DNA of 64,000 nt from Plasmodiophora brassicae (taxonomy: Eukaryota): the NCBI GenBank assembly GCA_036867785.1, contig CP145422.1, forward strand, positions 744,001-808,000, written 5' to 3'. The number at the start of each line of letters is the position of its first letter. Positions within the stretch are counted from its first letter, which is position 1. Shown here piece by piece: positions 10,843 to 56,330 of this stretch. A program made the translations under genes and the position numbers. The notes beneath the pieces are model-generated. The model was given only the letters and a program-made list of their open reading frames with translations. It was not told the origin of the DNA and searched no databases.

Positions 10843-10873
10843 TCCGTGGCGGACACCGTGACGCAGTCCGTGG
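10843..10873 (+). promoter_or_regulatory. Tandem TCCGTGRCGGAS-like motif upstream of DIM1
   Basis: TCCGTGGCGGAC ACCGTGACGCAG TCCGTGG, ending ~57 nt before ATG 10930. Confidence 0.55.
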
Positions 10874-10929
10874 GTCGTGGGATCCCCTGTCGACCCGGCA
10901 CGACGGCGCGCCGCCTCCTGCACCGAGTC

Positions 10930-12133
10930 ATGGCGTACGGGAAGGAGGCCCTCAAAGGGAGAAAGCAGTCAACGCATGCTCCCGTATCTGCTACCCATGG
11001 CATTGTGTTCAGTACGGCGCTATGGTATCACGGAACATGCCGTTGCACGTGTACTGATGACCTGTGCGCAGATAAGGACATCGGTCAACACATTCTCAAG
11101 AACCCGCTCGTCGTTGACGGGATTGTATCGAAAGCAGGGCTGAAGTCCACTGACATTGTTCTGGAGGTTGGTGGCTCTTTCCTGCGTCACCGCCGTCAGG
11201 CGCACTCACTGGCGCTTGATCAGGTCGGCCCTGGAACGGGCAACCTTACCGCGAAACTGCTGGCCGTAGCGAAGAAAGTCATCGCTGTTGAACTTGGTAA
11301 CTCCAATCAAGTACTAGGGATCTTATCCTGATCCGTTTCGTTTCTACAGATCCTCGTATGGTTGCCGAATTGCAAAAGAGGTTCCAAGGTAACCCGGACG
11401 GAAAGAAGCTGGAGATCATTCATGGCGACTTCATGAAGATCACGCTACCGTTTTTCGATGTCTGTGTGGCGAACACCCCGTACCAGATATCATCGCCTCT
11501 CACATTTAAGTTGCTCTCTCATCGACCCATGTTTCGGTATGTCGAGAACGTGGTGACGTTCATCAAGCACCGCTGAACCTGCTGCAATCAGATGTGCTGT
11601 GCTAATGTTCCAGCGCGAGTTCGCCCAGCGCCTGTATGCGCAGCCTGGTTCGGCGTTGTACTGTCGCCTCAGCGTCAACACCCAGCTCCTCGCACGCGTT
11701 TCTCACCTGATGAAAGTTGGGCGTAACAACTTCAGACCTCCTCCAGTAAGCGCTGTGTTAGCGTCTCCCAGGCGGTTATTAACGCCATCCCTAGCAAGTC
11801 GATTCGTCGGTCGTCCGTTTAGAACCTCGTAACCCTCCTCCGCCCATCAACTTTGTTGAATGGGACGGTCTCGTGCGGCTCTGCTTCAACAGGAAGAATA
11901 AGACTCTGAGTTCCATCTTCAAGCAGAACACCGTGCTGAAGATGATCGAGGATAACTACAACACGTACTGCTCACTGCACAACATCATGCCCGAGGCGAT
12001 CAACTTCAAGGACAAGGTCAATTCCGTCTTGACCGATCTGAACCTGGCCGACAAGCGGAGCGCCAAGATGGACCTGGACGACTTCCTGAAACTCCTCGAG
12101 GGCTTCACCCGATCCAATATACGGTTCTGCTGA
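10930..12133 (+). CDS. DIM1: 18S rRNA dimethyladenosine transferase, multi-exon
   Basis: [45 protein letters not shown] and [11 protein letters not shown] motifs. Confidence 0.97.
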
Positions 12134-12169
12134 CGAAAGTGGACATCCAGTTTATGTATCCAGTTAACG

Positions 12170-12964
12170 CTATCGTAGGCCGCCCGCTTGTACCCGTTCC
12201 ATTAATGGGTGTTCGGCCACCCGCTGCGGAAGATCAGGTAATGCCAGGCCCCCTCCAGACGACCATCGTCTCTTCGTCTCCCGCGCCTCTCCGCCTTCCT
12301 TACCGCCCGAAATGGCAGCCTTCATATCGGTGTTCAATCGGCAACCGATGGGTTTGACCTCAAGACGCGCAGGGCTGCCGGCCCCGAACCAGAGCCGCCT
12401 CTCCTTCAGCTCGACCAGCTTCGACGGCCCTGACAACGTGTAATGGATCGGCTGGCCTTCGGCGTTCACAGAGTAGATGTTCGCTTCGAAGCAGTTGCTG
12501 ACCTGCAGGGCCCTGAACAGGTGCTCCTCCTGACGCTTCAGCCGGATCACCATGACCTCGTCGTCGTCGATGCGCCCGACCAGCTCATGGTTCCCGAACA
12601 TCGTCGTTCGTATGGCGAACCTGGCCGTCCCGATCAGGCCGCCGGTTCGCTGTGACGCGAACATACCGCCACGAACGAAGACGGGGTCTGTATCCGGCCA
12701 GTTGTGCAACGCGACCGCGTTGCAGGTCACGCCGAGGAACCCACTCACCTCCGCCTTGTCGCAGCGGTCACACGAGAGGTCCGGCTGCTCCAGTTTCAAC
12801 GGGCGATCCCAGTGGCAGAACTCGACGCTGTCGCCGATCACCGATCCACAGTACAGGGCGCCGCGCGTGCATGGGCGTGACGCCACGACCGCCGCTGCTG
12901 CTAACAGGATGGCACCCAGGCAGACCTGTAAAGGACGTCTCCTAAATGGGTCGAACCACGACAT
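12170..12964 (-). CDS. Orphan predicted secreted or membrane-anchored protein; 3' end uncertain
   Basis: MSWFDPFRRRPLQVCLGAILLAAAAVVAS hydrophobic N-terminus, then a Cys-containing, beta-rich region with coding-like codon bias. Confidence 0.5.
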   Translation of the reverse strand: MSWFDPFRRRPLQVCLGAILLAAAAVVASRPCTRGALYCGSVIGDSVEFCHWDRPLKLEQPDLSCDRCDKAEVSGFLGVTCNAVALHNWPDTDPVFVRGGMFASQRTGGLIGTARFAIRTTMFGNHELVGRIDDDEVMVIRLKRQEEHLFRALQVSNCFEANIYSVNAEGQPIHYTLSGPSKLVELKERRLWFGAGSPARLEVKPIGCRLNTDMKAAISGGKEGGEARETKRRWSSGGGLALPDLPQRVAEHPLMERVQAGGLR

Positions 12965-53880: not shown

Positions 53881-54083
53881 GTTCGCTCCGCCACGCCGCC
53901 TCCCCAAATCTGAAACGCCAAAGAAAAATATCCTCCGATCGGCACCAACCGAAAGCACGCCGCGTTGGCACCGAAACAAAACGGAATCCGAGCGGCTGCT
54001 ACGAAGAATCTACACCGGCGTTACGTTAAAAAGTGGCATTGTGTCATGGACTTGGGAGTGATATGTATTCGGGAGGTGGGCGG

Positions 54084-56135
54084 CTAGTCGTCGGGCAGGT
54101 TGGCTTCGACAAGGCGCAGCCGGTAGCGCTGGTTATCGGCGGCGAGTTGCTGGATCGTCTCGCGCAGCGACGCGTTCAGGACGTTGCGCTCCTCGTCGTA
54201 CAGCGCGTTCATGCGCTTCCGCTCGAACGTCTCCTGTTCGAGGGCATGCCGAAGGGAGGTCAGCAGAACGCGGGACTCTTCGTGCGCCTGGGCGTTTCGT
54301 TTCTCGCATTCGGCAATGCGTCGCCCGAGGTGGGCGTTCTCGTCCACTAGTTGCCGGGCACGCTCTTGAGAGGCCGCCAGCTGTGCTCGCAGGCTCCGAG
54401 CTTCCTCAGCCTGTACCTTATTGCCAATGTCGGCTATGAACTCCTCCGGGTACGTGCCTTGCTGAAGAACAATGGCGACTTTGGTCCATAGCGCTTCCAT
54501 CCTCGCCGTGTTGTCAAGCTGTTCATCAAGTAGCCGTCGAACTAAGCGAGAGTTCTCGGCATACGCTGCGGGAAGCATGTCATCGTACGGTACGCCCGTG
54601 CCAGCAGGAGCAGCAACGTCCGGTGAAGGAATCTCTGATCGACCAGCAGCCTTCAGCTTCTCAATTTGGAGCCGCAGAGCGCGGCGCTCTTCATCGTGCT
54701 TCTGCCGAATCGCACGAGCTTTGGAGAATAGCAGAGCACGAGCATCAGCGGAAACGATTGAGAAACGGTCAGGAGAGATGGAACGGGACGCCACAGAACG
54801 CGTTGCTAAGCGGTGCATATCCACTGACGGGGAGCGACGATTCGCGGCCAGCCAGGCAGGTTGCGATGCATCCGGCCCGTACGGTTCTCCAAATGGCCTC
54901 GGCGACGGCGATCGAGATCGCGCCCGTTCAGGAGGGGCTTTACGTGGCGCATTGGAAACAGACACCGGCGAGGTCGACCGTGTTCGATCGGTCGACGGAT
55001 TACGCGACCGATTCGCCTGCTCGACAATAGGCGATAAGGGCCGGGCCCGCCCACGAGACACGTGGGCATCGCCCTGTGCGACCTCTTCCGGAGCACATGC
55101 TTCAGGTTTGCCCTGCTGGTCAGGGCCCCAGTTATGACTCCCAGCGTGGTCGTTAACATGTTCAGCACGACGGGCAGCAGGCGGCGGAGCTCGATCCATC
55201 GAATCATCAGAGTTCATCGCATCCGCAGCATGAGCATCGGGATCGGGCACGCCGCGATCTCCAACGCTGGGTGCCTCACAGGGCACTGACGATTGCGGAT
55301 AGCTTTGCGACATTGCCTGAGGTGATGGAGCACGTTGTGGAGGATGTTGTGCGATGACAGGACTCTGACGGTAGGGTGTCGGCTGGGGGCGAGGAGGATG
55401 GAGCATTCTCCTGGCAACGGGAGGACGAACCGGTTGCCGAGGATATCCTGACGGCATGGGTCGCACTTGCTGAGGCGGCGGCGCTGGATGATGGGATGAC
55501 GACGACGATGGAGTTGGAGGATGGACAGCCGACCCAGCAGGGTTGATTCGTCGAACGGGAGGCGGACCTGGAGATGGAGTCGGCGGATTTGCAGGCGATC
55601 CAGCTGGATCGATCCTGCGAACAGGAGGTGGGACTATGCCAGGTCGCATCATTCGGGATGCCGGTGGTCTGAATTGCACTCCAGGTCTAGGCGGACCTCG
55701 CATAGGCGCTCGCATAACCGGTGGCCCAGGTCGCAGCTGATTCCCTGGTGGCGAACGGGCGTTCTCGGGAGGAGCAGGCACATGGGGACGTGAACCGAAA
55801 GATGAAGGCGGTGGTGGCGGGCGGGAGCGTCCAGGTGGGACTCGCTGGATCATGGGTCTCCCTGAATCCGGTGGTTGCCCTGGTCGGCCTGGTCGGGCAG
55901 AGGCTTGCGGTTCAGCCATAGGCGATGAGGACCGAAGCGGAGCACGCGGTGACGGTTTCGATGTCGAATCAGAGACTTGCCGTTCGAGAACGGGCGGGCC
56001 GATATCGAGCGAGCCGCCGCCGGACACGGCGAAGCTCGAGTTCAGCTCGGACATGATCGATGTCTCGTCATCGGAATCGACGCCCAGCAGCTGCGGCGAC
56101 ACCACCGACGGCAACGCTGCATCCGCTGACGCCAT
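54084..56135 (-). CDS. Proline-rich protein with C-terminal coiled coil, function unknown
   Basis: 683-aa single ORF: P/R-rich low-complexity N-half, SP motifs and heptad-rich C-terminus. Confidence 0.7.
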   Translation of the reverse strand: MASADAALPSVVSPQLLGVDSDDETSIMSELNSSFAVSGGGSLDIGPPVLERQVSDSTSKPSPRAPLRSSSPMAEPQASARPGRPGQPPDSGRPMIQRVPPGRSRPPPPPSSFGSRPHVPAPPENARSPPGNQLRPGPPVMRAPMRGPPRPGVQFRPPASRMMRPGIVPPPVRRIDPAGSPANPPTPSPGPPPVRRINPAGSAVHPPTPSSSSSHHPAPPPQQVRPMPSGYPRQPVRPPVARRMLHPPRPQPTPYRQSPVIAQHPPQRAPSPQAMSQSYPQSSVPCEAPSVGDRGVPDPDAHAADAMNSDDSMDRAPPPAARRAEHVNDHAGSHNWGPDQQGKPEACAPEEVAQGDAHVSRGRARPLSPIVEQANRSRNPSTDRTRSTSPVSVSNAPRKAPPERARSRSPSPRPFGEPYGPDASQPAWLAANRRSPSVDMHRLATRSVASRSISPDRFSIVSADARALLFSKARAIRQKHDEERRALRLQIEKLKAAGRSEIPSPDVAAPAGTGVPYDDMLPAAYAENSRLVRRLLDEQLDNTARMEALWTKVAIVLQQGTYPEEFIADIGNKVQAEEARSLRAQLAASQERARQLVDENAHLGRRIAECEKRNAQAHEESRVLLTSLRHALEQETFERKRMNALYDEERNVLNASLRETIQQLAADNQRYRLRLVEANLPDD

Positions 56136-56305
56136 CGCACCAACGCCGCCCTACCGATGCCGCATCCACAAACTGGCTGCGACAGCTGTCGACCCAAAGA
56201 ATAGCCGATCTGGCACACGACACATCCCCCCAAAAATATTGCAGAAAACGAGAGTCATATCAGTGCTCATCGGATGGAGGTTTTTTGCGGCCGCTGGCGG
56301 CGAGG

Positions 56306-56330
56306 TCCGCGGCGGACTCCGTGGCGGACT
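56306..56330 (+). promoter_or_regulatory. Tandem 12-bp dyad motif upstream of MPP10
   Basis: TCCGCGGCGGAC TCCGTGGCGGAC T, 20-44 nt before ATG 56350. Confidence 0.6.

Follow-up and report, generated by a model that had tools for sequence, protein, structure and literature searches.

Co-regulation of ribosome biogenesis (RiBi) genes is universal, and the DNA code behind it is known in few lineages, for example as the PAC and RRPE motifs of budding yeasts and the Myc E-box of animals and choanoflagellates; these codes appear to have evolved separately. Here we analyze a 64-kb stretch of the genome of the rhizarian parasite Plasmodiophora brassicae (contig CP145422.1 of assembly GCA_036867785.1, positions 744,001 to 808,000 of the forward strand; hereafter the window, to which all coordinates below refer), in which four mutually unrelated genes for rRNA maturation, spread over 45 kb, are each preceded by a short array of tandem 12-bp units built of CCG and CGG triplets. 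Elements of this kind are already known; what is new is the sequence and the architecture of this candidate RiBi promoter signature, the lineage in which it is found and, probably, the factor that would read it.

Orthologs of all four genes, DIM1, Enp2/NOL10, MPP10 and DIS3, fall in the RiBi functional class of yeast. In budding yeast, as described in the relevant sections of two papers (PMC5416754, PMC8421047), PAC and RRPE are short motifs common to promoters of genes for rRNA processing and ribosome assembly, and the genes that carry them make up a co-regulated RiBi regulon. For Holozoa, the pertinent part of another study (PMC2570694) describes the RiBi signature E(CG), which in the fly is located within +/-80 bp of the start site and hence provides a precedent for promoter-proximal RiBi signatures; the same part of that study reports no Myc or Max outside Holozoa. 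The triplets of the Plasmodiophora array additionally call for a comparison with the sites of Zn2Cys6 factors, for which the section on DNA recognition in PMC10954478 gives the rule that CGG triplets in inverted, direct or everted orientation, at a fixed spacing, are read by homodimers; the examples include Pdr3 (CCGCGG, N0), Leu3 (CCG-N4-CGG) and Gal4 (N11), and the quoted spacings are N0, N4, N6 and N11.

For plasmodiophorids, a literature search for work on promoters, motifs, transcription start sites, transcription factors or cis-regulation found none, although supplementary files may hold data on untranslated regions (UTRs). A term search of the main text of Plasmodiophora genome papers detected no promoter or motif analysis in that text; all it has to say on the subject is that UTR overlaps were taken to suggest shared regulatory elements. 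Literature searches with the motif strings themselves retrieved only papers that are unrelated by title (on enterovirus detection, fly, bacterial and other subjects).

Four RiBi genes of the window are preceded by the same tandem array

A first-pass annotation of the window, made from the sequence without database searches, had claimed that the same 12-bp unit occurs in tandem some 20-90 nt before the ATGs of DIM1, DIS3, NOL10 and MPP10, and that this tandem form was not seen before the other genes. Both claims are borne out by the counts that follow, all of which pertain to one 64-kb window and four sites. The window contains five exact copies of the degenerate 12-mer TCCGYGRCGGAS, each of them on the plus strand (positions 10843, 16137, 49628, 56306 and 56318), against an expectation of 0.26, and none of 100 dinucleotide-preserving shuffles reached five. 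The 9-bp core CCGTGRCGG also occurs five times, exclusively at the loci of these four genes. When every position of the window was scored against an idealized two-unit 24-mer, at least 20 of the 24 positions matched at DIM1 (22), DIS3 (20), NOL10 (23) and MPP10 (24) and nowhere else. With the threshold lowered to at least 19 of 24, there are seven matches, whereas 30 first-order Markov simulations gave 1.4 on average and never more than 4; the additional ones are an overlapping register at MPP10 and two matches in very GC-rich coding DNA of leucine-rich repeat (LRR) proteins. The single 12-bp unit with 2 mismatches is not enriched in the window (43 found vs 37.9 expected), so that the signal resides in the near-exact tandem form.

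The position of the arrays is biased as well: in all four genes they end 20-56 nt and start 44-87 nt upstream of the ATG, and for four positions drawn at random, the probability that every one is located in the 100 nt preceding one of the four RiBi ATGs is about 1.5e-9. At the gene level, the motif is present in four of the four RiBi genes and in none of about 30 others (p of about 1e-5 to 4e-5, with the number of other genes, about 25-35, being an estimate from open reading frames (ORFs) and not a curated annotation), and coding DNA contains no sites. The motif is thus confirmed, at a frequency that greatly exceeds chance. One further copy with 1 mismatch, at 40078-40089 on the minus strand, is single and lies between the 3' ends of two genes; we take it to be a chance match.

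The gene identities given in the first-pass annotation are confirmed by Pfam domains and, in the case of DIS3, also by alignment with human RRP44. The array of DIM1 (10843-10873, plus strand) comprises about 2.6 units, that is, one exact 12-mer, one unit with 2 mismatches and one 7-nt partial unit, and is separated by a gap of 56 nt from the ATG at 10930; the gene, an intron-containing frame on the plus strand (10930-12130), encodes the 18S rRNA dimethyladenosine transferase, with the RrnaAD domain on the last exon. The array of NOL10 (49628-49651, plus strand) consists of two units, one exact and one with 1 mismatch, and is followed after 28 nt by the ATG at 49680 of a single 633-aa ORF (49680-51581, plus strand; NOL10/Enp2) which contains the NOL10 N-terminal and second domains and NUC153. 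This ORF is matched over 100% of its length by a 633-aa protein with 99% identity, and its best named relative, from Spongospora subterranea, is 63% identical. The array of MPP10 (56294-56329, plus strand) starts with a degenerate unit (56294-56305) that is followed by two exact units (56306-56329) and, after a gap of 20 nt, by the ATG at 56350 of the gene for this 602-aa protein of the U3 snoRNP and the small subunit processome (56350-58158, plus strand; Pfam Mpp10, E 1.6e-104), to which RNA contigs 56294-58183 and 56370-58182 correspond.

The remaining array, that of DIS3 (16129-16153), reads as the others on the plus strand and includes one full 12-mer between an 8-nt and a 5-nt partial unit. 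The gene for this exosome nuclease (DIS3/RRP44; 13106-16107) contains introns and encodes the RNB, OB_Dis3 and Rrp44_S1 domains; its exon 1 starts at 16107, with the ATG 21 nt away from the array, and aligns with residues 10-91 of human RRP44. The location at 16129, before the ATG, as originally reported, is correct; what has to be added is that DIS3 is on the minus strand, so that its array, though upstream as claimed, is inverted relative to the gene. There is no convincing plus-strand gene just downstream of this array, the first ATG there opening a 12-codon frame.

Gene identities across the window were assigned by comparing 46 ORFs or exons with Pfam and the whole window with Rfam; seven large Pfam-negative ORFs were also searched against all PDB chains, solved pre-ribosomes included, and one further ORF against the ESM Atlas. 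Besides the four RiBi genes, the recognizable genes are those for a NatB subunit, ABHD18, a tyrosinase, a Zn_clus protein, a HECT ligase, a SETD3-like methyltransferase, three LRR proteins, a Lactamase_B_2 protein, a TMEM260-like protein, a patatin, ATP11, a mitochondrial carrier, TPT1 (tRNA 2'-phosphotransferase), CEP44, CFAP97 and an FHA protein, along with one 5S rRNA and one tRNA. There is no rRNA-maturation factor among these recognizable genes and none of them has an array. Among the seven ORFs compared with PDB, five had no match, one matched only a designed repeat protein and the seventh is the SETD3-like gene; about 12 ORFs of the window are left without a name after the family and structure searches.

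Several features of the array surroundings were recorded in addition. The word CWGCA is found between array and ATG in all four genes (10918-10922, 16126-16130 on the minus strand, 49661-49665 and 56329-56333), at a distance of 12-23 nt from the ATG, and no other 5-mer with one free position is common to the four genes. With a background of about 0.004 occurrences per nt per strand, the word may be coincidental or may mark the start site in the way of an initiator. The nearest upstream ATGs are at -132 (DIM1), -103 (DIS3), -55 (NOL10) and -76 (MPP10), and only that of NOL10, at 49625, adjoins the array; it opens a 14-codon frame (49625-49669) that ends 10 nt before the NOL10 ATG and would be relevant only if NOL10 transcripts begin upstream of the array. 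MPP10 has a divergent neighbor on the minus strand (54084-56244; a 683-aa gene with the ORF at 54084-56135), the RNA contigs of which end at 56176-56244, that is, 50-130 nt from the array, so this gene may share the element. The protein has no Pfam match, its only PDB match is a designed repeat protein, and in the ESM Atlas no named cluster scored above 0.88.

Architecture of the array and comparison with known promoter systems

When aligned, the units read T-C-C-G-Y-S-R-C-G-G-A-S (in search form, TCCGYSRCGGAS). The array is a series of CCG/CGG triplets at a constant 6-bp step and in alternating orientation, the two to three 12-bp units being equivalent to four to six triplets; the alternation of CCG-N3-CGG and CGG-N3-CCG dyads that had been noted at first reading is plain in the alignment. 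The half-sites TCCGY and RCGGA are set apart by single bases, CGGA-S-TCCG is a perfect 9-bp palindrome, and with TGA as the spacer, TCCGT-S-ACGGA is palindromic over its full 11 bp. There are two dyad axes per 12-bp period, and only the central bases and the TGG variants give the array a direction. This near dyad symmetry accounts for the fact that the DIS3 copy, although inverted, looks like the others.

We searched the 300 nt upstream of each of the four genes for the cores of PAC, RRPE, E-box, TATA, PDRE (the pleiotropic drug response element), heat-shock element (HSE), telo-box and site II, using the commonly known consensus sequences, and found none of them, the PAC core being taken as the 8-mer. 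The array resembles the yeast PAC (Dot6/Tod6) and RRPE (Stb3) systems in being a short motif common to RiBi promoters, but its sequence is unrelated to theirs, as had been claimed in the first-pass annotation: it is a GC-rich tandem dyad beside the ATG, in a rhizarian and not in a fungus. PAC-like words were considered and dismissed. Three of the genes have the 6-mer core within 300 nt, with four occurrences in total, but in the window this core is at the background level (32 found vs about 31 expected), and a PAC-like 7-mer is found 11 times in the window vs about 8 expected. The array is also distinct from the holozoan E(CG) signature, the Myc:Max E-box, given that CACGTG is missing from the four upstream regions and that the unit in the window is 12 bp long, tandem and composed of CCG/CGG triplets. 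A bZIP TGACG site of the plant as-1 type was rejected, since the MPP10 array lacks TGACG; of E2F, ERF GCC-box and Myb sites, compared with the units by eye, none fits all of them.

The Zn2Cys6 family is mainly fungal. The likeness of its sites to the array lies in the pairs of CGG triplets, inverted or everted and at fixed spacing, which run throughout the arrays; the differences are an N3 spacing at both dyad axes, unlike any of the quoted N0, N4, N6 and N11, and a continuous alternating array of triplets in place of one pair. The TCCG...CGGA flanks of PDRE are similar to those of the array, but PDRE, the site of Pdr1/Pdr3, has everted triplets at zero spacing (TCCGYGGA), and this word does not occur in the four upstream regions, whereas the spacing in the window is 3. 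The earlier proposal that the array follows the triplet grammar of Zn2Cys6 factors, with PDRE for comparison, is supported in that the array fits the rule of the family (PMC10954478); there is no PDRE word, and the spacing is N3 and not N0. The window itself encodes a protein with a Zn_clus domain (22863-23342, plus strand; 159 aa, domain at residues 49-81, E 2.3e-8), which is a possible candidate for the reader of the CGG triplets, the evidence showing only that the fold exists in this genome. At its N-terminus, this protein has a second cysteine-rich stretch that looks like a partial second cluster, and there is no long regulatory domain in the same frame.

With respect to layout, the array can be likened to the HSE, in which contiguous, alternately oriented short units (5-bp nGAAn) are bound by an oligomer. 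In both cases, the half-sites follow each other head-to-head and tail-to-tail without a break, which makes the site independent of orientation, and its strength may scale with the number of units. The unit of the window is however 6 bp (TCCGYS / RCGGAS) and there is no HSE word, so that the analogy is one of layout only.

Transcript contigs and metagenomic matches

Contigs from four sequencing runs (X1, X3, X4 and X5) were aligned with the window; the starts of these contigs do not fix transcription starts and their depths do not rank genes. Although not annotated as RNA, the runs contain GT..AG and CT..AC joints of 49-60 nt and can thus be recognized as RNA assemblies. The contigs covering NOL10 start at 49531 in X3 and at 49563 in X4; the X1 contig is merged with neighboring genes, with no readable start, and in X5 a contig of depth 85.5 begins with the final base of the array (49651), while a separate contig of depth 4.8 covers 49268-49675. 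For MPP10, the X3 contig starts at 56294, 12 nt before the first exact unit, whereas those of X1 (56370) and X5 (56398) start downstream of the ATG and accordingly are 5'-incomplete. Thus, among the six separate contig starts, three are upstream of the array, one is at its 3' end and two are downstream of the ATG. As far as contig ends indicate, transcripts start within tens of nt of the arrays.

For the search in metagenomes, the 22-mer TCCGYGRCGGASTCCGYGRCGG was used as the query, and 112 stretches were found. The match falls within a stop-free frame of at least 200 aa in 103 of these, and the GC content is at least 0.55 in 106. A blastn comparison of the metagenome loci with the window gave seven hits, five of which consist only of 25-42 nt of the motif; in L073 and L088, there are 72% matches over 110 nt inside the Lactamase_B_2 gene. 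Among the 112 loci, none is similar to the window beyond the motif or the Lactamase_B_2 coding stretch, and no orthologous promoter was recovered; the ORFs that flank the match in 10 of the 112 loci, viewed without a library search, include nothing RiBi-like. The metagenome matches look like coding repeats or chance. Seven of the loci (L005, L008, L015, L024, L037, L096 and L109) carry at least 3 tandem 12-bp units in long open frames on GC-rich contigs; these units look like in-frame four-residue peptide repeats and are unrelated to the window outside the repeat. In another locus (L019), on an 82-kb contig with 39% GC, a two-unit motif (2918-2939, reverse strand) precedes the start codon of a 598-aa ORF by 59 nt, a position that resembles those of the window sites.

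A candidate promoter element of a RiBi regulon and the alternatives

Taking these observations together, we consider it moderately probable that the arrays serve a RiBi regulon as a lineage-specific DNA element, proximal to the start site and bound by a dimeric or oligomeric factor. The corresponding proposal in the first-pass annotation is supported within the window, where the tandem motif occurs only before the four identifiable RiBi genes and close to their ATGs. Under this model, the array would lie at or just beside the transcription start, 20-87 nt before the ATG; its near dyad symmetry would let it act in either orientation; a sequence-specific dimeric or oligomeric factor would bind it co-operatively; and this binding would tie the transcription of RiBi genes to growth. 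The architecture is compatible with a Zn2Cys6 factor as the putative reader. We infer that the arrays act as DNA, what kind of factor binds them and in which oligomeric state, that the four genes are co-regulated and that the regulon reaches beyond the window. A RiBi cis-element is the best supported reading of the arrays and, resting on four sites, is a well-founded lead rather than an established regulon.

Several points weigh against this interpretation. The evidence comes from only four sites in one 64-kb window, and the binding factor is so far hypothetical. The window lacks ribosomal-protein and translation genes, so that specificity for RiBi genes and for growth genes in general cannot be separated here. 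The contigs fix no start site, and thus do not set the position of the array relative to it. Furthermore, the three contig starts upstream of the array (NOL10 in X3 and X4, MPP10 in X3) mean that at least part of it is transcribed in some runs, which makes a role at the RNA level possible. The array would then be a 5'UTR element, a hairpin near the cap that is bound by a protein or directly sensed and, like an iron-responsive element or a terminal oligopyrimidine tract, controls how well RiBi mRNAs are translated or how stable they are. The contigs named take in the whole array, which is 20-56 nt before the AUG, and RNA folding predicts one and the same interrupted hairpin (4 bp, a mismatch, 4 bp and a triloop) for DIM1, NOL10 and MPP10. 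On the sense strands of these three plus-strand genes, the R/Y variants are always compatible with G-U or Watson-Crick pairing, the inner stem and the pair 5/19 consist entirely of standard pairs including G-U, and there is one compensatory exchange of U-A to C-G, which weakly favors RNA without exceeding what shuffled sequences give.

Indeed, the fold energies are no better than those of dinucleotide shuffles (z of -0.17 for DIM1, -1.48 for DIS3, +0.26 for NOL10 and -1.83 for MPP10). Over all five rows of the aligned sites, 85% of the cells pair and there is one two-sided change, but the observed paired share was reached in 295 of 500 shuffles and the observed covariation score in 227 of 500. 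The DIS3 mRNA carries the reverse complement of the array, in which the loop of the best hairpin is the TGA spacer instead of the A-S-T spacer and the mismatch is C-C instead of G-G, so that a structured 5'UTR element with the same strand and the same loop is not common to all four genes; such an inversion is readily understood if the array is a symmetric DNA site, but fits poorly with an RNA signal that depends on the strand. In addition, the high-depth NOL10 contig of X5 begins only at the last base of the array, which in this run is covered by the low-depth contig alone, and transcription from upstream of the array would bring the ATG at 49625 into the NOL10 leader, creating a short upstream ORF. 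We therefore regard the RNA element as unlikely; of the two options initially offered, a DNA-binding site or a 5'UTR hairpin, the latter gained no support from the fold and covariation tests, even though the array is partly transcribed.

A DNA element could also have a more general role, in the core promoter or in start positioning of a housekeeping or growth gene class, of which the four RiBi genes would be the members present here; the Homol-D box of the ribosomal-protein genes of fission yeast plays a comparable role. The tight and similar position beside the ATG in all four genes, the lack of a TATA-like word in the upstream 300 nt and the presence of CWGCA between array and ATG are in line with this possibility, and the gene content of the window, without ribosomal-protein or translation-factor genes, offers no means to tell RiBi from growth genes. 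However, the motif is missing from about 30 other genes, including the housekeeping genes for the NatB subunit, ATP11, the mitochondrial carrier and TPT1, so that the class has to be narrow and, in the window, coincides exactly with rRNA maturation; a general element of this type seems quite unlikely to us. By far the least probable is that the arrays are a chance or neutral GC-rich, microsatellite-like 12-bp repeat without function. The word is not exotic, given the 112 metagenome stretches with the 22-mer pattern, mostly in-frame repeats in GC-rich, probably bacterial coding DNA, and the single unit with 2 mismatches is at the background of the window. Against such an origin stand the complete failure of the shuffles to reach the observed count and the location of the arrays, all four of which are non-coding and close to the ATGs of unrelated RiBi genes dispersed over 45 kb.

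If correct, the model of a start-proximal RiBi element would provide a third, independent example of growth-regulon wiring, a handle on the factor through which a clubroot-type parasite that cannot be cultured couples its growth to the host, and a marker that would help to annotate compact genomes of this kind, both for gene starts and for genes regulated with growth. In a bolder version of this model, which we consider rather unlikely, the parasite would run its whole RiBi regulon through the array of CGG triplets at a 6-bp step, read co-operatively, in the manner of heat-shock factor, by a non-fungal factor of the Zn2Cys6 type or another dimeric factor. Such a regulon would amount to an independently evolved growth switch and to the first cis-regulatory code for plasmodiophorids, perhaps for Rhizaria.

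Genomic context

The window has about 60% GC (the average of its profile), is gene-dense with short introns of 49-60 nt, and encodes centriole and flagellum proteins. According to the descriptive part of PMC4815078, Plasmodiophora brassicae genomes have 59% GC, intergenic distances mostly below 800 bp and overlapping UTRs. The block 28000-36000, with 68-69% GC compared with about 60% elsewhere, contains the three LRR genes and the Lactamase_B_2 gene, in which the GC content of third codon positions is 0.87-0.96, and thus stands out in composition from the rest of the window. The 5S rRNA gene (3599-3719, plus strand; 82.6 bits) and the tRNA gene (3242-3325, minus strand; 53.9 bits) are located between protein-coding genes, with no motif nearby; a 273-aa ORF (2885-3706, minus strand) overlaps both and is therefore probably spurious.

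The TPT1/KptA gene (51700-52770, plus strand) is packed between NOL10 and CEP44, with its 5' end adjoining the NOL10 stop codon, and contains four short GT..AG introns of 49-60 nt, which are confirmed by joints in the RNA contigs. At 52482-52541, a joint in run X4, seen in none of the other three runs, skips 58 nt with AG..AT ends; this could reflect alternative or non-canonical splicing, or else an artifact of the assembly.

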